Assembly (NCBI GenBank): GCA_965218305.1
Contig: OZ244617.1
Location: forward strand, 3,522,967-3,586,966
DNA from: an uncultured Candidatus Binatia bacterium
GTDB lineage: Bacteria; Desulfobacterota; Binatia; UBA9968; JAJDTQ01
Reading direction: 5' to 3'
Length of the DNA stretch: 64,000 nucleotides
The notes under the pieces are model-generated. The model saw nothing but the letters and a program-made list of their open reading frames with translations. It did not search any database and had not been told where the DNA came from. Of the stretch, positions 2,754 to 50,757 are shown piece by piece. A program made the translations under genes and the position numbers. Each line of letters begins with the position of its first letter. The stretch's first letter is position 1.

Positions 2754-5700
2754 CTAACCGTTGGACCTCCTCAACACATCGCGCATGACTTCCTTGGCCG
2801 GCCGGATGCGATTGGTGAGAATGTCCAGCGCGAACCGTGGTGGCCCCGATCTCCGACACTCGTCAGCAAGCAACTCTTTTGCCAAGTCCTGGCTTTGCCC
2901 TGTCGACATCGATGCCATCAGGCGGACAGTCGATGCCCGAACACTTGGCTCATCATTGTCCATGGCGAGCTGCAAAAGAGTCCCTTCAACCTCGGGATCT
3001 CGTTCCAATCGGGCACGGAATGCGTCCAACGCATCCTCGGGGAAATCCCATGGACTCGACGTCTGCCTAGTTACGAACCATGCAAGGGCGCTAGCAACCT
3101 GTTCCCGTGTTCCTTGTGCGCTCAGAAGCCAGAGGTCGGCGCAGACAAGCAATCTGGGCCACTGGTGTCCTCCCAGGAGATTTCGGTACTCGCGCACAAT
3201 TACCTCCTGATCCGGCCAGTGGGATGCCAATCCGACCAGTGCGCCTCCCTGCGCCTGGAGACTGTCGCTGGCTACTATGATCGCTGCCACCGCGGAGGAA
3301 TCTTCGGAGAAGTGCTTAGCCACACATTTCGACGCCACGACCGTGGATCGGGCAGCATCGAGGGGAGTCCATCTCTGTGCGTCGAACTCTGCGGTCAAAA
3401 CCCGTTTACAGCAATCCAGCAGCAGCGAACTGCCGGGTCTGAGCCGTGACAGCGCCACCAGCCCGGCCGCCTCCAGCACCACGGCCTCGTCCTCGCAGTA
3501 TTCGAGGAATCTCGTCCTCAAGAGGGATGAGCGGTTTAGGTAGGGTGCGAACGACCGCCAGAAGCCGGCAGGGTGTTCCCCCCATCGGCTAAGGCGACTA
3601 ACCGGAAATTCCCCCGTCGCCGTTTCCAGTTCCTCCCATCGGTCCGCCGCCAATTCAAGAACTGGTGCGTAGTCCTTGAACTGATCTACGAGGTCTATTC
3701 TAAGGAGTTCGTCGTCGCCCTTATCCTTCGCACCTGCGAAGACATCGACGCGCCCTAGCGCCAGTAAGCCCGCGAAAGCCGCAACGCGCCGCTGGTCGAA
3801 GTCAGGCCCGACAGCGTCAACTTGTGCGCGCAGGGCTTTGATCCTCGCTTGGGTCTCGCCGGGCGCTGCGAGCGCTGCATAGGAACGCCCGATCGTCGCC
3901 TGAACCATTGCATATTCGTCCGTCTCCAGCTCGCACGCGTGTAAGACTCGCCTCAACGCCTCGTCATCGAACCGCTGGCTTGCTCTCCTCGCGATGTAAC
4001 GGCGAAACACCGTCGGAAGCGGAGCCGCACGCTGCAGAATCAACGGTGCGATTTCCGTGTCGCTGCCGTAGACGCTTGCGATTGCCGCCAGAGGAGGTGA
4101 TGGCTCCCGCAGCCGTTCCAATGCGAACTCCCTCACCCGCGGATCAGCGTGAAACCGGGCGACTAGCCCGCCTTCACCCCCGAACACGGCTGGAGACTTC
4201 CTGACATGAGGCAGGATCGCGGACACAGCCTCCCCCTCGTCGATCTCGTTGCCGAGGGCGGCGAACCCTCCTATCACGAAGTCCGTTCGCGAGACCTCCG
4301 GGAGGTCGCAGATCTCTATTAGCAGCCGAAAGCCCTCGTCGACCGAACCGATGATCGCCGGAACGTGATGGGCAATGTGTTGTCTTTCTTCGGGAGGAAT
4401 CCGCGGGAGCGGTTCCAGGGCAGCGCTAACCTCGGGATCGTCGATCCCCCAGCCATGTAGCAAGCTCCAGACCGGCCAGAACCGAAATTGCCCTCTTTTG
4501 GCCAACCGGCTTAGCATCTCCCGCTTGGCCGCATCGCTCCTGAGCATTGCCGCCAGCTCCGCCGCCTCGTACTCAACACCCGAGAATTTCTTCTCCTCGA
4601 ACCAGGTCTCGACGGCCGCACGCACGTTCGCATGTTCGGACAGGATCGGCTCCAGCAGCGCGTCCACGGGTCCCCTGAACGGGAAGTGGTCACGCGTTTC
4701 TATTTCCTCCTGTATCCAGCGGGGCACGCGGGGATCTACCCGATGGAGTCTCATGAGCATCGATCGGGCGTCTTCGTGGCGGATGCGGTATTTCGGCGGA
4801 CCCCGCCTGCCTACGCCGGCCCAACAGGCGTCCTGCAATTCGCCGTCGTCCGCCCAGTCCGTGACCAGCGCGTCCATAATCTCCGCGTGGAGTCTGCCCG
4901 TGAACCTACTCCAACCGGTGCCCAAAGCGCCCAGCAGCGAGTCCCTCCCCTCATCACCTCGCCGACCACGCCGGTACAATGCCAAGGCGGTGACCATTCG
5001 AATCTGAACACTCGGCGAACGCTCACCCTCGTGCAACCAGTCGTCCAAACCATCGACGGACGGCCAGCCCCGGCTCAGTGCATCGAGCGCCGCCGCCGTC
5101 ACCCAAGGGTTCACGGACTCGTGAGTGAGTGCGATTAGCCGGCATCCAACCTCGGGGATTCCTCCAAAGACCCTTGCGAGACTCAATGAGGCGGCCAACT
5201 GGTTGCTGTCCCCCTGGAGTACGAGCTGCAGCGTCTGGGCAAGTTCCTCCGTCGGCTGCCACCGACCGAGCTGTGCGTAAAAGTCTGCTTGCCACTCGGT
5301 GACCCCGGGCCACCACCTCGCAAGCCGTGTGACGATCGCCTCGCCGATGGGGCCGGCGCGCGGACCATCCAACGCCAGGCCCAGCAACTCGAGCCCTTCG
5401 GCGTCATCCGTCCCGGTTTCGATCCGACTCAGACTGTCAAGAGCCGCCTGCCGACCGACCGCCCCCGAGACAGACGCCGTTGCGAACGCGCCGTCCGCGA
5501 GCAGCAACCGCCGATCCGTCGAGTCCGGCTCCCCCTCGTGTTCGTCCCGTATCGCTTCGAGCATCCGCTCCACGTCAGCCCTGCGCTTCAGCGATTGGAG
5601 CAGTGCAAGAATGGTACCGCGCCAGCGTGGTTCGCCCGCATGGCCGGACACGAACTCGACCTGGTCTTCCAGCGTCCAGGTGGCGAGTTCCAGCCCTGCA

Positions 5701-7667
5701 AGGTGTTCACGAAACGCGGCATGGCAGAACGCAAGTTCTTCCGGACCACGCTCCACTAGGAGGCCTGACGTATCCGCTTCCAGGTCAGTCAATTCCCGCG
5801 CCCCGAGTCGGGCCTGCTCCTTCGACCATGCGGGTCCGCCGTCCGAATCAGCCAGGAAATCCTCGATGACTCGCCGGGCATCGCTGCGATCGATCCCGGC
5901 GTCCGCGCCCCGTACCTGAACCTCGAAAGCCAGCTTGGCTAGAGCTTCGCTCCGAACGTCGTCGGTCGAGAACATGCGGGTCCGTGGTTTCACCTCGGCG
6001 GCCGCCGTCGCACGCCGATTGGGATGCACCTCCAGGAGGATTTCGATGAGTTTCTCAAACAACTGAAATCGCGTGTTGGGTAGGAGGATCTGGCGTGCCG
6101 CCACCGAGAGCAACCCGTGGAGCAGCAACGGATTACCTGTCAGAGACTGCAGCCGACCGCTATGCTCCAGTTGCTGGAAGAACTGCTCGACCCGAAGCGC
6201 GACGGGAGTCGCCGCGCTATCGTCCTCGCTCAGGAGCTTGGTCGCGAGGTCGCGTTGTTGGCGCGGGTGCAACTCCACCAGTCGCGCAGTGTTCCAGTGC
6301 CCGCTCATGGGGCCCAGGCGGCGCAACCCGGCCGGGCGCGCGGTCGCTATGGTGAATACGTCGTGCGTGCGAACGAAGGTTTCGATCGTGGCAAGCGTCG
6401 TCCGCGCGGCCTGCTCATCGCCGTACTCGTCCAGACCGTCTATCAGCAGCACCAGTCTTTCGTCGGATAGCGCTTCGATGAAGGAGTCCTCCAGTTCGCT
6501 CTGGGGAACGAACGCCCTGAACGCCTCTCGGGTTACCTCCGCCAACCCCACTTCGCGTTGTTCCTTCGCCGTGAGACGGCTCCAGAGTGCAAAAGGGATA
6601 AGCAATGGTATGCGCGTACCGAGCCGGTCATGGACGGCGGGGAACAGTTCCGGAGTGCGCACCAAGTCGAGCGCCAAGCACCGCAGAGCCGTACTCTTGC
6701 CCAATCCGGGTGCGCCCGAGAGCAGCAACGCGCGGGCGCCCTGCAACAGCCAGTCGTCGAACGCAATAGAAGGCGTCTCGGACGATTCACTCGGCGGACT
6801 ACGAAAACGGGTAGGTTTCCCGGGGTCGCTGTACTCGTCGAACTCCCAGGCATCGTCATCCTGTCCGGGCGCTTCGGTGGGCCAGTCCTCTGGCTCAAGC
6901 GACGACTCGAGGAACGCATTGGCTGGATCGACATGGGGGACGACGAAGCGCTTGCGGATATCGCGCGCATCCCTCCGACCCGGGTCGACGTTCAACCCCG
7001 GGTCGAGCTGCTGGATCCGTGCGTTGTAGATTTCCGCCAGACGCCTCCGCAGCGCAATCACGCGTTGTACTTCCAGCGGCCGTTTTAGGCTCGCCGCAAC
7101 CTCCTCGCCAGCAAAGGCAACGAGCCAGTTCCGACCGAAAAAGTCGTCGACGACCTCTGGATGGGACTTTAGCTTCTCGCTAAGCTGGGTACCGTCGACA
7201 CCTTCGAACACGACGCCTTTTTCAAGAAGCCGTGCGGCCTGTGCCTCGATCGTGTCCTGCAGCGCGGTGTCTGTAAGGCTTGCGCGCACGCAAAAGACGA
7301 AGCGCTCCGCCGACGCAGCCCATTTGCCCTTGAGGAAGTCGTCGACAGCCTTCTCGATGTCGGACTTCCCCACGTCCTTCCGATTCCTGGCCTGCCAACA
7401 GATATGTCCACCGCCAGCCAGACGGGCATAAACGTCGATGCCATCCTGAGCTTGACCGGGTCGCCCATACGGCGCACAGTACACCACGTCAGGATTCCGG
7501 CGCGCCAAGCAGAACACAAGCCGTTCGAAGTCTCGCCACGAGAGCTGGTCGTAAGGCAATTGCGCGATTCGGGTCTCTACCGGGGGATCTTTGACGACCG
7601 ATTCCGGAAGCTCCAGGAGATAGACGGGGACCGTCGGGGTCCCTGAAGGCGCGATCGAATCGTGCAA
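2754..7667 (-). CDS. restriction-endonuclease-like N-terminal domain + NACHT/STAND NTPase + long helical C-terminus (Avs/bacterial NLR-like antiphage candidate)
   Basis: N-terminal LSWRDFERL...YGRPGQAQDGIDVY...WQAR; Walker A GAPGLGKST; Walker B LLIDGLDE; 1637-aa uninterrupted ORF. Confidence 0.85.
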   Translation of the reverse strand: MHDSIAPSGTPTVPVYLLELPESVVKDPPVETRIAQLPYDQLSWRDFERLVFCLARRNPDVVYCAPYGRPGQAQDGIDVYARLAGGGHICWQARNRKDVGKSDIEKAVDDFLKGKWAASAERFVFCVRASLTDTALQDTIEAQAARLLEKGVVFEGVDGTQLSEKLKSHPEVVDDFFGRNWLVAFAGEEVAASLKRPLEVQRVIALRRRLAEIYNARIQQLDPGLNVDPGRRDARDIRKRFVVPHVDPANAFLESSLEPEDWPTEAPGQDDDAWEFDEYSDPGKPTRFRSPPSESSETPSIAFDDWLLQGARALLLSGAPGLGKSTALRCLALDLVRTPELFPAVHDRLGTRIPLLIPFALWSRLTAKEQREVGLAEVTREAFRAFVPQSELEDSFIEALSDERLVLLIDGLDEYGDEQAARTTLATIETFVRTHDVFTIATARPAGLRRLGPMSGHWNTARLVELHPRQQRDLATKLLSEDDSAATPVALRVEQFFQQLEHSGRLQSLTGNPLLLHGLLSVAARQILLPNTRFQLFEKLIEILLEVHPNRRATAAAEVKPRTRMFSTDDVRSEALAKLAFEVQVRGADAGIDRSDARRVIEDFLADSDGGPAWSKEQARLGARELTDLEADTSGLLVERGPEELAFCHAAFREHLAGLELATWTLEDQVEFVSGHAGEPRWRGTILALLQSLKRRADVERMLEAIRDEHEGEPDSTDRRLLLADGAFATASVSGAVGRQAALDSLSRIETGTDDAEGLELLGLALDGPRAGPIGEAIVTRLARWWPGVTEWQADFYAQLGRWQPTEELAQTLQLVLQGDSNQLAASLSLARVFGGIPEVGCRLIALTHESVNPWVTAAALDALSRGWPSVDGLDDWLHEGERSPSVQIRMVTALALYRRGRRGDEGRDSLLGALGTGWSRFTGRLHAEIMDALVTDWADDGELQDACWAGVGRRGPPKYRIRHEDARSMLMRLHRVDPRVPRWIQEEIETRDHFPFRGPVDALLEPILSEHANVRAAVETWFEEKKFSGVEYEAAELAAMLRSDAAKREMLSRLAKRGQFRFWPVWSLLHGWGIDDPEVSAALEPLPRIPPEERQHIAHHVPAIIGSVDEGFRLLIEICDLPEVSRTDFVIGGFAALGNEIDEGEAVSAILPHVRKSPAVFGGEGGLVARFHADPRVREFALERLREPSPPLAAIASVYGSDTEIAPLILQRAAPLPTVFRRYIARRASQRFDDEALRRVLHACELETDEYAMVQATIGRSYAALAAPGETQARIKALRAQVDAVGPDFDQRRVAAFAGLLALGRVDVFAGAKDKGDDELLRIDLVDQFKDYAPVLELAADRWEELETATGEFPVSRLSRWGEHPAGFWRSFAPYLNRSSLLRTRFLEYCEDEAVVLEAAGLVALSRLRPGSSLLLDCCKRVLTAEFDAQRWTPLDAARSTVVASKCVAKHFSEDSSAVAAIIVASDSLQAQGGALVGLASHWPDQEVIVREYRNLLGGHQWPRLLVCADLWLLSAQGTREQVASALAWFVTRQTSSPWDFPEDALDAFRARLERDPEVEGTLLQLAMDNDEPSVRASTVRLMASMSTGQSQDLAKELLADECRRSGPPRFALDILTNRIRPAKEVMRDVLRRSNG

Positions 7668-34921: not shown

Positions 34922-36208
34922 ATGAAACGAATCGTCCACTACGTGAACCAGTTCTTCGCCGGCCTCGGCGGCGAGGAAAGCGCCGGTCTCGCGCCCGGCC
35001 ATCTGGAAGGCGCGACCGGGCCGGGCAGGCTGTTGCAAACGTTACTGGGGGAGAGTGCCGGCATTGTCACGACGGTCTACTGCGGCGACGATCACTTCTC
35101 CGAGAACGAGGATGAGGCGACAGCCCGGCTGCTGGAGCTGATGACGGCGGCCAAGCCCGACCTGCTGTTCGCCGGCCCGGCCTTTGGCTCGGGCCGCTAC
35201 GGCCTAGCCTGCGCGGCGGTGTGCCGGGCGGCGAGTGCCGAGCTCGGCGTCCCGGTCCTGACCGCCATGGCGCTGTCCAACCCCGGCGCCGACTTGATCC
35301 GGCGCGAGCTTCCGGTGGTCCGCACCGGAGAGTCGTCGGGCGACATGCGCGCCGCCCTCGAGTGCTCGGCCGGTCTGATCGCGAGGATCCTGACCGGCGA
35401 GGCCGTGGCGCCAGGCAGCGAGGAGGGCCTGATCCGCGGCGGCCGTTGGAACACGCGCGCGTCCAGGCGGGCCGCCGAGCGGGCCGTGGACCTGCTTCTG
35501 GCCAAGCTCGCCGGTGGTCCCATGGAAACGGAGATCCCGCTGCCGGCCCTCGAGGAGGTCGCGCCGGCGCCCGGGATCTGCGACCTCAGGTACGCCAAGG
35601 TGGCGCTGGTCACCACCGGCGGTCTCGTGCCACGGGGCAATCCGGATGGGATCAAGTCGTACCTGTCCACTCACTTCGGGGTCTACGGGCTGGAGAGCAA
35701 GGAGCACCTCACCGCGGACGAGTTCGAGTCGGTGCACGGCGGCTTTTTCACCGCCGCGGTGAACGACGACCCCAACCGGCTCATTCCCCTGGACGTGCTG
35801 CGGGAGGCGGTTCGGGAAGGATTCCTGGGGGCGCTGCACGAACGCTTCTATTCCACCACGGGCAACGGCACGCCCATCGAGACCGCGGCCAGCATGGCCC
35901 GGGACATCGCGGCATCGCTGGAGGAGGACGGCGTCGACGGCGTCATCCTCACCTCTGCCTGAGGCACCTGCACTCGCTGCGGCGCAGCGATGGCAAAGGA
36001 ACTGGAAAGAGGCGGCATCCCGACGGTGCACGTGACCAATCTCGTTTCGGTGTCGGAGAACACCGGGGCCAAGCGGATCCTGTCCGGACGGGCGATTCCG
36101 CACGTGTTCGGCGATCCCTCACTTGGCGCGGACGAGGAGCGTCAGCTCCGGCGGCGGTTGGTGGAGCAGGCACTGGAGATGTTGAAGGAGGAGGAGGGGG
36201 CGGCGTGA
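34922..36208 (+). CDS. glycine/sarcosine/betaine reductase selenoprotein B (GrdB/GrdF/GrdH family), Sec at TGA 35960-35962
   Basis: VHYVNQFFAGLGGEE N-terminus; GVILTSA-TGA-GTCTRCGA (UxxCxxC) continues in frame as MAKELERGGIPTVH...IPHVFGDP. Confidence 0.92.
35963..35992 (+). promoter_or_regulatory. bacterial SECIS element
   Basis: 11 nt after the UGA comes a 17-nt hairpin TCGCTGC-GGC-GCAGCGA (35974-35990), the same geometry as the E. coli fdhF SECIS. Confidence 0.75.
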
Positions 36209-41615: not shown

Positions 41616-41777
41616 CCGCTTGCGGCTCGGTCCGGGGCTCTGGGCAAGCAGCGCGAAGCGTCGAATTCCTCCGGCCGGTTGTCGGCGGGAGAGAGAGCCC
41701 GAGTTGGCGGAGTGACACTGGTCAGGCTGTTGTTCGGCGAGTGGGTTCGGTGTCGATCGGCGCGGTAACGCATTGAT

Positions 41778-41879
41778 TGAGGTGGTCCTGGTTTGTTGGA
41801 CAGGGTGCTGGCATGATCGATGACTCGGAATACACCTTATCTCGGCCGCCATCCTGTCCAAGAAACCAGGACCACCTCA
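41778..41879 (+). mobile_element. 102-bp IS3-derived MITE (two ends, interior deleted)
   Basis: 30-bp inverted repeats with 2 mismatches (41778-41807 / 41850-41879, TG...CA); the inner part matches the right-end sequence of the IS3 copy at 47864. Confidence 0.8.
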
Positions 41880-43302
41880 GTCCTGCCGTTCCGGTTGAGC
41901 CGGCGGAGGGGCGGGCGAGCGGTGGGGCTCAGCCTGCATCTCCATCAGCATTCCTTTGTCGTAGGCCTCGGCCGGGGTGGAGTCGGCCAGGGCGGAGTGA
42001 GGCCTTTGGGTGTTGTAGAACCCTATCCAACGGGCGATGACCCGTTGGGCCTGGAAGCCGTCGGAGAGTTCGTGCAGGTAGACGGCTTCGTACTTGAGCG
42101 AACGCCAGAGGCGCTCGATGAAGATGTTGTCCATACACCGGCCCCTGCCGTCCATGGAGATGGCCACACCGGCGTCTTTGAGGGTGGCGGTGAACTCCAG
42201 GCTGGTGAACTGGCTGCCCTGGTCGGTGTTGAAGATCTGAGGCCGGCCGTAGCGTTCCAGAGCTTCGGTCAGGGCCTCCGTGCAGAACCGGGCATCGAGG
42301 GTGTTGCTAAGCCGCCAGGAGAGCACCCGGCGGGTGGCCCAGTCCATGACCGCCACCAGGTACAGGAAGCCCTTCTGGACAGGGATGTAGGTGTAGGGGT
42401 CGGACCGGAGCGCCCTGTCGTCTTTCGAGCGATGGGTTTCTCCGGCCCGCCCTCCGAACCGGACGTGCGACTCTCACCGCATCCGGCTCTCCATGTGCTC
42501 ATACCGTCAGGTTCAGCTTCGTCTGCATCGCGAGTACTCGTGACTCCGCCTCGATCGGACCAAGCCATGAAGCACCGGTATTCACCAGCGTCCTCCTCGT
42601 TGGGCATTGAAGCCGGGAGCACACTGGACCCCTTCGCCATGTACACGGCTTTCCCGTGCTCGGACTACTACGGGTCCTCCGCCCCACTCCGCCGGCATCA
42701 ACCGGCGACAGGTCTTCCCCGCCATGCTGGCAGGGACCGACGAAGTGGTTCCCACGTTCACTCTCGAACCCTTCAACGGGGTCGGTGCCCAGCTATGCCC
42801 CTGCAACCTCGCCACGGCTACGCCGCAGTCCTTCACCGTGGCCTCCCTGCCGGCGACATAAACCGGCCCAGGAGTTCCCCAACTGGCCAGACCAGTCGGG
42901 TGCGCGTTGCAACCCAGCCCTTATCTGTCAGGTTCGAGCTGGTGGTGCTTGAGGGGCTTTCCGCCGCTGGTTCCTTGCGTACACCTCTCCGTCTCGCTTG
43001 CCGGACCCACGCCATCTGACAGTGCTGGCGCGTCCCGTCGTTGTCAGGACTGCTTCCACCTTCACCGATGTCCCTCGGGTCGGGCTGCCCTCAGCTTCTT
43101 TCAGCCTGCTGCGACAGGCTGTCGGCGGTGGTCTCTCACCACCGCAAGGTTCGAGAACGCCTCGTGGCGCTCGATGTCCGCCGTCCAGACCTGATTGGGC
43201 CGTTCGATGGCGAGGCCCTTGAGAAGATAGGGATACACCCGGTGCTGGGGGGATGCCGTGTGGTGGTCCGGGGCGCCTGGTAGATGGCCTGTAGCCACCT
43301 CA
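41880..43302 (-). pseudogene. IS3-family transposase OrfB fragment interrupted by a group II intron
   Basis: HRVYPYLL...NQVWTADI [intron] TYIPVQKGFLYLVAVMDW...NTDQGSQFTS...DNIFIERLWRSLKYE; only 8 bp of the left end remain (CCACCTCA 43295-43302). Confidence 0.92.
42393..43172 (-). ncRNA. ORF-less group II intron (780 nt) with internally deleted RT/maturase
   Basis: 5' GAGCG (consensus GUGYG); domain V GAGAGCCGGAUGCGGUGAGAGUCGCACGUCCGGUUC (42456-42491); 3' end CCCUAC; 28-aa IEP stub at 42499-42585; removal rejoins the D-I/T-Y codons. Confidence 0.9.
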
Positions 43303-43346
43303 GTCAGCATCAACGCCAACATATCTGCAAACTTGGACCTCTAGTT

Positions 43347-44672
43347 CTACCTATGAACCCAGCGTTCAAGCTTGCGAATGGCATCATCTAGACCCTTCCG
43401 TACTTCCTTGAGGTCGGTGACCACTCCACCTATCTCGTTTGACCGGCTTGCAAACAGTTCTCCCTGCCTACGTGCTTCCCTTGCCATATCGTGCGCCGGC
43501 CAACGTACTACTGCATTTACACACGGGTGCAATTCCACGACCAATCTGCCAGGTGTTACTGTCCTGAATTGAGCCCCAAACATCCCACCTTCAAACAAGA
43601 CACGCAGCTCCCTGATTCCAATATCGCAGCGTGGCCGGGACAAAATCGAGTCTTCCTCCGTTAACGCTCTCCAAACGTGCCGCCCAAGGCTACTGAGACA
43701 TAATTCGCGCTTCCCGTGTAGTCCGGCAAACAACCCGAGCCAAACAACCGCGCTAGGGTACCGTTCCAGATGTTTCAATATCAAACCGGCATGTTTGATA
43801 GTGCCGGGGAAAATTCTGCTCCCCAAATAACCGGCGACAAACGAGTACTCTTCCTTGTATCGGTATCCCCAGTTCCCTCGGTCCCCAAGTACGTGTTCCA
43901 GAACAGTCACCCGGTCCTCTTGCGTACCCTTCATTGGCTCAATTGCCTGCCGCGCATTTGGGAAACCCGATGTCAACCGCTTCCACGTCGCTTCTCCGAT
44001 TTCGCCCTTGTCAACTACCTCCCTAAGGCCGGCAACAAGCGACCGATTCCCGCCGCGCTTCGACCTGCGATCCGACTCCTCCGCGGGACCGTTTATCATA
44101 TCCATTACGGTCTCCCACGGGACCAACAAACTCTCAACCTCAATTCGCAGCGGAGCCTGTCCGGTAATACTTCTGCAATTCGACCATCCCCGCGCCAGCT
44201 GCGTCATATCGACCTTGCGCCGTATCCCTTGGGAAGCTGCATACGAAAAAGTCGCGATACACGCAGACATAGAAACACGGTCCACATCATACCCCTCACT
44301 CGACTGTGCCATTGCCTCTGTTACAACCAAGCCAATGGACGCCGCTTCCAGAAGTCTTTCTCCTTCGCGGCTGATTCGGTCATCGTTCCCAATCACTTCC
44401 TCATCGGAAAACACTCTGAAGTATGCCGAAATCGGACTCCAGTTTGGCACGTACGTGTTCGTCCACGCAAAGAAGTCGTCGACGTCTGCGTCGCGCACCA
44501 TCAACGCTACCGGCAACTCTCCGTTTCTTGGCTCCTTTGCCCAGATGAGCAGGACATCCCCCATCTTCAAGCCATCCCGGTCTCCACCTTCGCGAGCGCG
44601 AAGGGACTCCGCGGGCGACCCCCGCTGAAGCAGCTCCGTGAACTGCTGTCTCCCGACCTTAGCGTTCCACAT
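43347..44672 (-). CDS. hypothetical protein (441 aa), third gene of the kinase-helicase operon
   Basis: Intact ORF starting 2 nt after the helicase stop; no motif recognised; coiled-coil-like C-terminus. Confidence 0.8.
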   Translation of the reverse strand: MWNAKVGRQQFTELLQRGSPAESLRAREGGDRDGLKMGDVLLIWAKEPRNGELPVALMVRDADVDDFFAWTNTYVPNWSPISAYFRVFSDEEVIGNDDRISREGERLLEAASIGLVVTEAMAQSSEGYDVDRVSMSACIATFSYAASQGIRRKVDMTQLARGWSNCRSITGQAPLRIEVESLLVPWETVMDMINGPAEESDRRSKRGGNRSLVAGLREVVDKGEIGEATWKRLTSGFPNARQAIEPMKGTQEDRVTVLEHVLGDRGNWGYRYKEEYSFVAGYLGSRIFPGTIKHAGLILKHLERYPSAVVWLGLFAGLHGKRELCLSSLGRHVWRALTEEDSILSRPRCDIGIRELRVLFEGGMFGAQFRTVTPGRLVVELHPCVNAVVRWPAHDMAREARRQGELFASRSNEIGGVVTDLKEVRKGLDDAIRKLERWVHR

Positions 44673-47681: not shown

Positions 47682-47863
47682 TGGTGTCCCCTCGACCAAA
47701 CCCGATTGCGTGATCCCCTGGTCCCCTGTTGAAGGTCCGCTGCGGCACTGTATCTGCCTACCACAAACTCTGTGCCCTGGCGATCGCCGTGTGGACGGGC
47801 TTCCCCCGTGTTTGCCTGACCGCCTCGGTCGCTACCCGCGTAGCGCTGCGACAACGGGATGTC

Positions 47864-48660
47864 TGAGGTGGTCGCATGTTCTTGGACAGATGGGCGGCTG
47901 AGTTATGGTGCATTCGGGGGTAATCGGTCATGCCGCCAGAGTTCCGTGTAGCACGTCTTCGTGTTCCGGTTGAAGTCGGCAGTGGGGTGGGCGAGGGGCG
48001 GGGCTCGGCTTGCAACTCCATCAGCATTTCGTTGTCGTAGGCCTCGGCCGGGGTAGAACCATCCAGGGCGGAGTGAGGCCTTTGGGTGTTGTAGGACTCT
48101 ATCCACCGGACGATGAACAGTTGGGCATGGAAGCCGTCCGAGAGTTCGCGCAGGTAGACGGCCTCGTGCTTGAGCGAGCGCCAGAGGCGCTCGATGGAGA
48201 TGTTGTCCATGCACCGGCCCCTGCCGTCCATGGAGATGGCAACACCGGCGTTTTTGAGGGTGGCGGTGAACTCGAGGCTGGTGAACTGGCTGCCGTGGTC
48301 GGTGTTGAAGATCTGAGGCCGGCCGTAGCGCTCCAGGGCTTCGGTGAGGGCCTCTGTGCAGAACCGGGCATCGAGGGTGTTGCTAAGCCACCAAGAGAGC
48401 ACCCGGCGGGTAGCCCAGGCCATGACCGCCACCAAGTACAGGAAGCCTTTCTGGACAGGGATGTAGGTCAGGCCCGCGGTCCAGACCTGATTGGGCCGCT
48501 CGATGGCGAGCCCCTTGAGAAGATAGGGGTACACCTGGTGCTGGGGATGCCGAGCGGTGGTCCGCGGCGCCTGGTAGAACCCCTGTAGGCCCATCACCCG
48601 CATCAGACGCCGCACGCGGTAGCGGCCGACACAGACTCCGTCCCGTCACAGATGACGGAC
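47864..48660 (-). pseudogene. IS3-family OrfB fragment with right end (intron-free allele)
   Basis: RVRRLMRVMGLQ...WTAGLTYIP...MAWATRR...IERLWRSLKHE; terminal repeat TGAGGTGG at 47864; 5' truncated. Confidence 0.9.
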
Positions 48661-48698
48661 CGCCTCCTCGCGTGTATGAGGCAGAGTCATGAGATACA

Positions 48699-49140: not shown

Positions 49141-50757
49141 GTGCCGTCACTATACTTGAGTCGTCTACCGAACGAACAACGGAACATTTTGCGCGAAAGG
49201 CTGCACGAATCCCAGAACGGGAAATGCTTTATCTGTGGATTGCCCATTGATTTGGACCTACAGGCCAGCAGCCTCGACATCGACCACATCGAACCAATTA
49301 GCGCCGGTGGAAGAGACGGGCCAGACAACTTCGCCCTGACCCACCATTCCTGTAATCGGTCAAAGCAGGCCAGCGATCTGCGGGTGGCCCGGTTGCTGGC
49401 TTCTTTCGATTCCTTGGCACAGCAGATAGCAGAGGAAAATCGGTCGCCAAATCTGGGCGACGTCTTGTTGCTGCGCGGAGGGAGCAAATACCAACTGTCG
49501 GTAACGGTAAACGGGGTACTTTTTGAAACGACCTTTGCCGAAATGGGCCAGAATGCAGTGAAGACTTTTCCGGTATACGAAGATCACATATCGGGCTTTC
49601 GTTCCACGTTCGTCAACTTACCAATCGAGTACTTGCACCACGATGACTATATCAATCCAAGGGCAATCGGCAGCAATTTGAGGAAACTGCTAGAGGAGTT
49701 TCACAAGAAACTCCCACAACTCCATATTTCTTTGGGGTGGATCGACACGTCTCAGGGAAGCCGGGTAAGGGTTAAAATCTTCGACGGCCAACACAAGGCT
49801 GCCGCTCAAGTCCTGCTGGGCGCCCGCAGCCTTCCCGTGAGGATTTTTATCGATCCCGACATTGATGTACTTCTAACAGCCAATACCAATGCCGGAACCA
49901 CGTTGCGTCAGGTGGCTTTCGACAAATCGGTGCAACGGAGTCTGGGCAGTTCAATACTCAGCAACAGGATCGACCGCTACCGTACAGATAAGGGGCTTGA
50001 CCAGGACGACGAAAATTTCTCTGAGTTGGACCTGATTAACCACTTCAAAGGGGAGAGTCGCCAGATGAAGCGATACGTGCTCGACCGGGTGCGTAATGCC
50101 ATAACCACTCACCCCGACAATAAGCTCAGAGACTATATTGAATACGGCGGCCGAAGCACAGAGAAACCGTTGAGCTACAGCACCATAGAGAAGACCTTCT
50201 ACCAGATGTTCGTCTCTGGCGACGTACTAAGAACGCCGTTTAACTACAGATTTCAGGAAGGTGCAAATCCACGGCAGTTGGAGATCGAGCAGACGGTGAG
50301 GCTAATGAACATTCTTGCCGATGGAATTTACATTGAACAGTTCGACCCCACTCGAGGCACGCGCCACATAGAGAACGATGTCCAGAAAGGGAAGTACATT
50401 GCGGAACCGCACCTCCGCGCCTTCCGTATGTCAAAGGAAGAGGTAGTCCATAATTGGGTACGTCTTATTCAACAAATTGTGTACAATTACTTTGTTATGA
50501 CCGGGAAACCAATTGACCAGAAGACACTTTTTCAACGTGAGATTCCTGAAGCTTGCTGGATGAACGTCACGAATTTTGTTGACGCCCTGAAAAGCCTTTC
50601 ACTCTGGTTAAACAAGGACCTCTCCCTTTCCGCCTTCGGTACCAAACGAACCAATGAATACTGGTACTCGATTTTCGAGAGCGGGAGCACACCGGATGGC
50701 ATGCCGGTTATGCCCTCAGGTCTAAACCTCCTGGAAATGATAAAAAGCGAAGACTGA
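49141..50757 (+). CDS. N-terminal HNH endonuclease fused to a ParB/DndB-like (DGQHK) domain
   Basis: CFICG...DIDHIEP..AGG.D...NFALTHHSCNRSK; central KIFDGQHKAAA. Confidence 0.8.
   Translation: MPSLYLSRLPNEQRNILRERLHESQNGKCFICGLPIDLDLQASSLDIDHIEPISAGGRDGPDNFALTHHSCNRSKQASDLRVARLLASFDSLAQQIAEENRSPNLGDVLLLRGGSKYQLSVTVNGVLFETTFAEMGQNAVKTFPVYEDHISGFRSTFVNLPIEYLHHDDYINPRAIGSNLRKLLEEFHKKLPQLHISLGWIDTSQGSRVRVKIFDGQHKAAAQVLLGARSLPVRIFIDPDIDVLLTANTNAGTTLRQVAFDKSVQRSLGSSILSNRIDRYRTDKGLDQDDENFSELDLINHFKGESRQMKRYVLDRVRNAITTHPDNKLRDYIEYGGRSTEKPLSYSTIEKTFYQMFVSGDVLRTPFNYRFQEGANPRQLEIEQTVRLMNILADGIYIEQFDPTRGTRHIENDVQKGKYIAEPHLRAFRMSKEEVVHNWVRLIQQIVYNYFVMTGKPIDQKTLFQREIPEACWMNVTNFVDALKSLSLWLNKDLSLSAFGTKRTNEYWYSIFESGSTPDGMPVMPSGLNLLEMIKSED

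Follow-up and report, generated by a model that had tools for sequence, protein, structure and literature searches.

The 64,000-nt stretch of contig OZ244617.1 that we analysed (hereafter the window), from an uncultured Candidatus Binatia bacterium, carries a group II intron without an intact open reading frame (ORF), lodged in the catalytic region of an IS3-type transposase gene. We read it, at a probability of roughly 0.7, as a non-autonomous, ORF-deleted mobile intron, belonging to a lineage that kept moving after its gene was lost, by means of protein supplied in trans by full-length relatives. Covariation among relatives, together with a match to an established RNA model, shows the feature to be a group II ribozyme with an intact predicted fold. 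The window copy itself would be structurally intact, currently dependent on others, and possibly idle.

Boundaries, fold and protein remnant of the intron

An earlier, sequence-only reading had described here a 780-nt insert between GACATC and ACCTAC, within the DDE region of an IS3 transposase gene, and had noted intact domains V and VI, a target-recognition stem-loop exposing AUGUC, a 5' end of GAGCG rather than GUGCG, and the loss of the protein gene; on all of these points our analysis agrees. Read along the minus strand, the sequence runs CAG GTC TGG ACG GCG GAC ATC/GAGCGCCACGAGG ... GGUCCGACCCCUAC/ACC TAC ATC CCT GTC CAG, with slashes at the ends of the intron. These boundaries are set by the IS3 frame that removal of the insert restores (WTADI/TYIP), and also by alignment, the full-length relatives beginning and finishing at the same bases. 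Joining the exons at GACATC/ACCTAC gives a product (...RPNQVWTADI/TYIPVQKGFLYLVAVMDW...) with a complete rve (DDE) core, the joined frames of which read ...HRVYPYLLKGLAIERPNQVWTADI/TYIPVQKGFLYLVAVMDWATRRVLSW...NTDQGSQF...DNIFIERLWRSLKYE... and match Pfam PF00665 at E = 9e-26 and PF13683 (rve_3) at E = 1e-17. The intron is inserted just after the codon for the first catalytic Asp and that for the Ile next to it, and alignments with IS3 homologues on alphaproteobacterial plasmids cross the junction uninterrupted. Furthermore, the splice-site register is fixed by exon position -1, which covaries with the first base of exon-binding site 1 (EBS1): the relative L017 combines CAUGUC with exon GACAUG, L030 UAUGUC with GAUAUA, and L002 UAGGUC with GACCUG. 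A boundary shifted by one base (GACAU/CGAGCG...CCCUA/C) was rejected because of this same covariation.

At its 3' end, the intron matches the Rfam model of domains V and VI, RF00029, end to end (42393-42491, minus strand) with 60.8 bits against a gathering score of 40 and an E-value of 1.8e-9 for the whole window, in which it is the sole match to this model. The match covers domain V, for which a helix of ~34 nt, bearing an AGC catalytic triad and a bulge of 2 nt, is the expected form. In domain VI, the putative branch-point adenosine is bulged both in the Rfam alignment and in the minimum-free-energy fold, 8 nt from the 3' end, while the end itself (...UAC) fits the AY form. The 3' half of domain VI and the terminal ...CCGACCCCUAC are conserved in all nine of the GAGCG-type relatives with 3' ends read.

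The Rfam models for domains I to IV all stay below threshold in this intron, the best of them being RF01998 with 17.5 bits versus 35, and a weak, sub-threshold match to D1D4-1 overlaps the region of domain III; the IIB label of the sequence-only reading thus draws no support from these models. An RNAalifold consensus of the first 663 nt of the window intron, aligned with 25 relatives (26 sequences), gave 167 pairs across domains I to IVa, and at 79 of these both partners had changed in a compensatory way. The window intron keeps 164 of the 167 pairs and breaks three, while protein-encoding relatives break one to three. The sequence-only reading had allowed that domains I to III might turn out not to fold; the covariation-supported consensus indicates that they do.

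Within domain I, the EBS1 loop reads UAUGUC (42860-42855), of which AUGUC (42859-42855) is complementary to exon GACAU, and five of the six possible pairs between EBS1 and its intron-binding site (IBS1), exon GACAUC, are present in the window copy. When this loop column is compared with each intron's own exon, the 26 introns reach a mean of 5.42 pairs out of 6, whereas the best of 30 exon shuffles reaches 4.69.

Domain IV is where the protein gene has been lost. The closest full-length relative, L010 (2128 nt, L010:3372-5499), lies on another Ca. Binatia chromosome, OY762897.2, and is 94% identical to the window intron over positions 1-663 and 98% over positions 665-780; full-length L030 is likewise 94% identical over positions 1-663. 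The L010 protein starts with GTG-AAT-ACC-GGT (VNTGASWLGPIEAESRVLAMQTKLNRWA...) and ends in ...TPTA before its stop codon. Relative to L010, ~1.35 kb of protein-coding sequence is missing from the window copy, from codon 25 to the last two or three codons, and the window reads C/TG ACG GTA TGA instead. What is left of the intron-encoded protein (IEP), in frame, are 25 N-terminal codons (VNTGASWLGPIEAESRVLAMQTKLN) from the GTG at 42585, a junction codon for L, and T-V-stop, and the earlier count of 24 plus 4 residues came close to these 25 codons, the junction codon and two further codons. With its gene cut to these remnants, the intron is non-autonomous and must depend on a protein supplied in trans.

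Table 1. Positions of the intron, its domains and its exons in the window (DIVa, domain IVa)
Feature	Positions	Strand	Description
Whole ORF-less group II intron	43172 (5' GAGCG) to 42393 (CCCCUAC 3')	minus	780 nt
Exon 1	43173..43317	minus	5'-truncated, frameshifted piece of IS3 orfB ending ...RPNQVWTADI
Exon 2	41877..42392	minus	transposase core from TYIPVQKG... to the stop; second Asp (NTDQGSQF) and Glu (ERLWRSLKYE)
Domain I	42752..43167	minus	intron positions 6-421; holds the EBS1 stem-loop; RNAalifold consensus
EBS1 stem-loop	42849..42867	minus	stem GCCGG/CCGGC, loop UUUAUGUCG; read directly from the sequence
Domain II	42681..42751	minus	intron positions 422-492; covariation-supported helix, alignment columns 476-565
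Domain III	42626..42677	minus	intron positions 496-547; covariation-supported helices, columns 569-620
Domain IV remnant	42492..42625	minus	DIVa, 25 IEP codons, deletion junction, stop
DIVa stem-loop	42573-42590	minus	GGAGGA Shine-Dalgarno and GTG start at 42585; covarying helix, columns 665-682
Deletion junction	42504-42513	minus	AACC/TG/ACGG
IEP stop codon	42499-42501	minus	after T-V
Domain V	42456..42489	minus	34 nt, GAGCCGGAUGCGGUGAGAGUCGCACGUCCGGUUC; RF00029 60.8 bits; domain V-VI stretch 98% identical to the full-length L010 intron
Domain VI	42397..42453	minus	extended helix; putative branch-point A42400 bulged

The GAGCG lineage and its ORF-less members

A scan for the lineage in one genome per species, for which GAGCGCCACGAGGCG followed by the conserved start of domain I was used, yielded 31 GAGCG loci, distributed over Actinomycetota, Ca. 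Binatia, Thermodesulfobacteriota, a Deltaproteobacteria bin and Immundisolibacterales (Gammaproteobacteria). One full-length GAGCG intron, on plasmid pNit of Rhodococcus rhodochrous (L001:459-2637), occupies the same IS3 site (exon junction GCC GAC ATC/GAGCGCCACGAGG) and is 77% identical to the window intron; the protein encoded by its ltrA (WP_159419616.1, 463 amino acids) has the Pfam domains RVT_1 and GIIM only, and no endonuclease domain. Many of the GAGCG loci carry complete RVT_1 and GIIM protein genes, with products 63-99% identical to this Rhodococcus protein. The A at position 2, where the consensus is GUGYG, had led the sequence-only reading to consider an intron newly dead through a U2A change. 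Because 31 related loci share GAGCG, many of them with intact, uninterrupted protein genes, it has to be seen as a lineage variant, and on these comparative grounds A2 is a trait inherited in a successful, protein-encoding and site-specific lineage, not a recent lesion. No column in domains I to IVa switches complementarily with A versus U at position 2, in a comparison of low power that included three GUGCG sequences only. As for the idea of a viral vector, the GAGCG pattern had no match in a viral contig collection.

Judging from exon flanks and loop sequences, the lineage is shown to home via EBS1 to the codons around the first catalytic Asp (GAC-ATC, W-x-x-D-I) of IS3-type transposases. 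In 22 of the 30 GAGCG loci with readable flanks, the five codons upstream of the intron encode W-x-x-D-x, the commonest version ending in GACATC, and the EBS1 loop typical of the lineage is (G/U)AUGUC.

Members of the same intron family were also seen after other transposase motifs. The GUGCG-type introns L001b (L001:2968) and L003:2499 follow GIDWAE.H, and a plasmid hit with this site (H13) is annotated as an IS110-family transposase. HWEGDL, a motif that we take to be IS30-like, precedes L002:2499 (GUGCG) as well as L019 and L020 (both GAGCG). It may be that the wider family has specialised on codons for the catalytic motifs of more than one type of transposase: W..DI in IS3, HWEGDL apparently in IS30, and GIDWAE.H in IS110. 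On yet another Ca. Binatia chromosome, OZ244869.1, two loci (L009:5820 and L012:459-501) share only the first 132 nt of the intron, which are 96% identical to the window, and both have the same non-IS3 flank, ...GGACATA, that would pair perfectly with UAUGUC, the EBS1 version present in the window.

Three of the 31 genome loci (L018, L005 and L026) are ORF-less, and a metagenome scan with the deletion junction added three more such copies (L035, L036 and L037). An independent ENA contig, L038, which was found through the neighbouring 441-amino-acid protein, is 99.4% identical to window positions 46901-42113 (4.8 kb) and carries the same intron with four extra bases in a domain I loop; the indels in exon 1 that are described below are common to both. 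The sequence ...AAGCTGAACC-(0 to 6 nt)-(T)RACGGTATGA is common to the window copy, L038, L018, L005, L035, L036 and L037, and the filler in it, between AACC and ACGG, marks common descent, because it matches neither flank in the parent gene (Table 2). The genes around these introns are nevertheless not the same. The host gene of L018 and L037 reads ...NCKWAADI/TYVWTRCGWLYLAVVLDLYSR..., that of L026 ...PNALWLADI/TYVATWAGFVYVAFVID..., and L005 resides in yet another IS3 gene. The 150-nt flanks of the window copy align at 70-76% with those of L018 and L026, which is near background for the scoring, while the introns are 96% and 90% identical, and the flanks of these three encode clearly different IS3 proteins. 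Copies with the same junction are thus present in three different IS3 genes, with L026 in a fourth, and in different genomes, not within one. The simplest reading of this distribution would be that the RNA kept inserting into new IS3 genes after losing its protein gene.

Table 2. ORF-less copies of the intron, with identity to the window intron (IS, insertion sequence)
Copy	Identity	Deletion junction	Host IS
Window and L038	100% apart from one 4-nt indel	filler TG	type A
L035, L036	96%	filler GATGTA	type A, as in the window; exon identity to the window copy 81-88%
L018	96%	filler AATGTA	type C
L037 (partial)	96% (299 nt compared)	filler GATGTA	type C, same IS as L018
L005	94%	filler AATTG	type E
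L026	90%	different 5' breakpoint, ~37 codons kept	type D

How could such an intron have kept moving? We suppose that a full-length parent, similar to the Ca. Binatia introns that are 94-98% identical and encoding a reverse transcriptase (RT) and maturase without endonuclease domain, lost ~1.35 kb of domain IV. The deletion would have spared the DIVa stem-loop, in studied introns such as Ll.LtrB the high-affinity binding site of the intron protein, and by analogy its binding site here as well. The shortened RNA would have retained the ribozyme fold and gone on inserting into new IS3 genes. From what is known of group II introns in general, and of the TeI3 introns discussed below, it may be expected that the RNA, once transcribed, would be bound in trans by the RT/maturase of a related full-length intron, spliced as a lariat through A42400, and reverse-spliced into DNA sites matching EBS1, followed by copying into cDNA. 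Among the ORF-less copies, variation is half as frequent in paired columns (23 of 490) as in unpaired ones (31 of 328), and 15 of the 23 varying pairs are canonical in every copy. This pattern fits continued selection on the fold, the structure being itself partly derived from the same sequences.

A more far-reaching proposal, which we hold tentatively and at somewhat less than even odds, is that the ORF-less lineage uses the first-Asp codons of IS3 elements as landing pads, rides these elements between hosts, borrows RT/maturase from related autonomous introns, and in this way has crossed phyla at 90-96% identity with its 5' GA conserved. The phylum labels involved are Thermodesulfobacteriota, Gammaproteobacteria, the 'Deltaproteobacteria' bin and, probably, Binatia-like organisms.

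Two of the relatives have a composite structure. L010:3222-6440 is chimeric, in that exon 1 belongs to a window-type IS (84% identical) and exon 2 to a different IS3 gene, while the window-type exon 2 recurs ~840 nt further downstream, where it follows a repeat of the 3' half of domain VI; this context suggests recombination between intron copies in different insertion sequences. In L005 (reverse complement, ~920-2860), a twintron is formed by a different group II intron that sits inside domain VI, after ...GGAGGGCG. This inner intron has an RT of ~30% identity and short domains V and VI, and it starts with UUGCGCC; its 3' end is also found at the Binatia locus L010:~5500-6395.

Alternative explanations and the host insertion sequence

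Several observations weigh against a lineage that moved on without its gene. In the window copy, U42860 of EBS1 stands opposite exon C at -1, whereas the copies L018, L005, L035 and L036 have G and pair perfectly. A comparison of all alignment columns with exon positions -6 to -14, in five registers, gave no EBS2-IBS2 pairing above the shuffled-exon control, and on inspection by eye no partner for IBS2 recurred consistently in the variable loop at 42878-42900. Together with EBS3/delta, EBS2-IBS2 pairing is what assigns an intron to structural subclass IIA, IIB or IIC. With the relative's protein as query, tblastn found no IEP gene anywhere in the window, nor do the available flanks of any ORF-less copy contain a gene for a helper protein. 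Compared with L038, the window copy is moreover 4 nt shorter in one loop of domain I. At 4-6%, the distance between the full-length introns L010 and L030 and the ORF-less copies is the same as that among the ORF-less copies themselves, and with such star-like distances the tree alone is no proof of a single deletion event; L026, with its different 5' breakpoint, may represent a second, independent deletion. Finally, the taxon labels of several copies derive from metagenome bins, in which mobile elements are easily misplaced.

The mismatch at exon -1, the 4-nt deletion, which is private to the window copy, and the missing IEP gene could also speak for an inert relic, that is, a copy unable to splice or move even in the presence of a maturase, decaying along with a dead IS3 remnant; the host IS being a pseudogene fragment, there would be no selection for splicing. 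We nevertheless consider this unlikely. Two of the three broken consensus pairs are shared with sister copies or full-length relatives, and the third (columns 623/631), which is window-only, belongs to a short helix following domain III for which support is weak. Domains V and VI have stayed nearly identical to those of a protein-encoding relative, the 4-nt indel falls within an unpaired loop of variable length, and A2, as a trait of the lineage, does not count as damage.

A different explanation would be that each copy lost its gene separately, after a full-length intron had been inserted, the similar breakpoints being due to a hot spot for deletions at the domain IV base, and that no ORF-less RNA ever moved. 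The 5' breakpoint of L026 is in line with this, as are the variation in the filler between AACC and ACGG (RATGTA, AATTG, TG) and the nesting of full-length L010 among ORF-less copies in a neighbour-joining tree. The filler, however, as RATGTA and its variants, is common to three insertion sequences (L018/L037; L035/L036; L005) without matching either parental flank, and star-like distances of 4-6% do not allow the tree to put the events in order. Moreover, a single deletion followed by proliferation is documented for the TeI3 introns of Thermosynechococcus elongatus (PMC2882425). Altogether, separate deletions appear quite improbable to us.

The sequence-only reading had further proposed an RNA switch, by which the IS3 transposase would be made only once the intron is spliced out. 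The exact insertion in the first catalytic Asp motif does mean that an unspliced message gives no active enzyme, and the idea could apply to a complete IS elsewhere, such as L035 with its orfA and start of orfB. For the window copy, the state of the host makes it very hard to sustain. Homology to L035, in which orfA and the start of orfB precede the intron, ends at ~43317, and the window IS has neither a left end nor orfA, while its orfB is short of ~110 codons on the N-terminal side; it is not a complete element. The unrelated 441-amino-acid gene upstream ends at 43347. Compared with the second copy of this IS in the window, exon 1 is one base short near 43297 and carries two additional C near 43250. 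Since the host IS is 5'-truncated and frameshifted, splicing cannot restore a transposase here, and by this account of the locus splicing of the window copy is without consequence for any transposase. L035 shows a frame break in the same region as well, and nothing points to a regulatory input. The 8 nt TGAGGTGG near 43294-43301 were considered as a fused left inverted repeat, a candidate that was dropped as orfB homology continues upstream. The genes upstream of the intron, for a kinase, a helicase and the 441-amino-acid protein, share its strand, and no terminator-like site separates them from it; judging from strand and this absence, read-through transcription into the intron is possible.

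That the deletion would be an assembler's collapse or chimera, which the earlier reading had named as what could overturn it, can be practically dismissed, as L038 has the same intron save for the 4-nt indel and six further copies from other genome or metagenome assemblies carry the same or a closely similar deletion.

The window contains a second remnant of the same IS3 transposase at 47758-48661 (minus strand), which is 89-93% identical, intron-free and also truncated at its 5' end, though elsewhere than the first. Exactly where the first has its intron, it reads GGCCTG (A-G-L) versus GACATC (A-D-I), three of the six bases being changed and the catalytic Asp lost, in a stretch that is otherwise well conserved. 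The two remnants are in direct orientation around ~4.4 kb of unrelated genes. Right after the transposase stop of the intron-bearing copy, at 41775-41882, the IS terminus (TGAGGTGGTCCTGGTTT.TTGGACAGG) occurs twice, inverted, with arms of 38 nt that are 87% complementary and a spacer of 32 nt, while the second remnant and L036 have a single terminal repeat ~100 nt past the stop. An inverted duplication could account for this doubled terminus, as could a miniature element composed of IS ends.

From 43347 to ~52000 the GC content is low, 0.50-0.57 versus 0.62 for the whole window. This stretch is interleaved with the IS3 remnants and reaches beyond the second. Among its products are a Ser/Thr kinase that matches PD-T4-6 defence models (E = 9e-33), a UvrD-type helicase that matches a NERD+UvrD / GajB-like model (E = 4e-25), the 441-amino-acid protein, which has no family match, and a 538-amino-acid HNH protein (49141-50757) in which a DGQHK motif is present. 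The stretch has the appearance of a defence island acquired by horizontal transfer. Further away, at 34922-36000 (plus strand), lies a gene for glycine/sarcosine/betaine reductase selenoprotein B (Pfam GRDB, E = 4e-122). The open frame runs up to a TGA (35960-35962), next to which Rfam SECIS_4 follows without a gap (35963-36000, 48.9 bits), and by this arrangement the TGA is a predicted selenocysteine read-through site, with the gene going on downstream.

Comparison with known introns

Among known systems, the ORF-less TeI3 introns mentioned above are the nearest parallel in kind, as they go back to one deletion and are mobilised in trans by the proteins of related introns (PMC2882425). As in the window lineage, ~1.4-1.5 kb of domain IV was deleted from a protein-encoding intron, leaving N- and C-terminal remnants (PMC2882425), the same breakpoints recur at different sites, and EBS/IBS pairing at the insertion sites is good. 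The dependence of the RNA on the protein of related introns in trans would be another shared feature, for the window lineage by analogy. In contrast, TeI3 is present in 17 copies in one genome and its trans-mobilisation was shown experimentally (PMC2882425), whereas the window lineage is known from sequence only, is spread over different organisms and assemblies, always in IS3 transposases and with one copy per genome sampled, and has a 5' GAGCG. The L010 and Rhodococcus pNit introns are like the window copy in their 5' GAGCG, 3' ...CCGACCCCUAC, EBS1 loop, domains V and VI, and homing after GACATC in IS3, but differ from it in having kept an uninterrupted RT and maturase gene.

In bacteria, group II introns generally home into other mobile elements (PMC4181065). 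Like the full-length relatives described here, RmInt1 of Sinorhizobium meliloti has an RT-maturase protein without DNA endonuclease domain (PMC4615759). It differs in being autonomous, in starting with GUGCG and in targeting an IS630-type element. Its site lies in the transposase gene of ISRm2011-2.

Since its introns look active although position 2 is A, the lineage is a useful natural resource for probing the role of that nucleotide. The 5' end of aI5-gamma from yeast mitochondria, GAGCG(G), would make A2 a tolerated natural variant, although a literature search did not confirm this end. Like the window copy, aI5-gamma is an ORF-less group II intron, and it is self-splicing (PMC4424553); it differs in being organellar, residing in a housekeeping gene, not being a recent deletion derivative and not being known as mobile.

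In bacteria, ORF-less introns nearly always co-occur with related protein-encoding introns, as rare derivatives of these, and they have mostly been treated as non-mobile and splicing-only (PMC4424553, Zimmerly & Semper 2015), with TeI3 as the one well-studied exception, confined to a single cyanobacterial genome (PMC2882425). Against this view, the occurrence of one deletion type in several unrelated insertion sequences argues for retained mobility. If true, gene-less introns can persist and spread horizontally by way of an IS vehicle and a borrowed reverse transcriptase, which bears on models of intron proliferation uncoupled from intron-encoded proteins. For annotation, the locus is best described as a dead IS fragment with a passenger intron, not as a regulated transposase. 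ORF-less introns that are mobilised in trans are an already known kind of element, and the window copy is an addition to that kind; its points of specialist interest are the ORF-less copies across unrelated insertion sequences and phylum labels, the conserved GA at the 5' end, and the homing to a catalytic motif.

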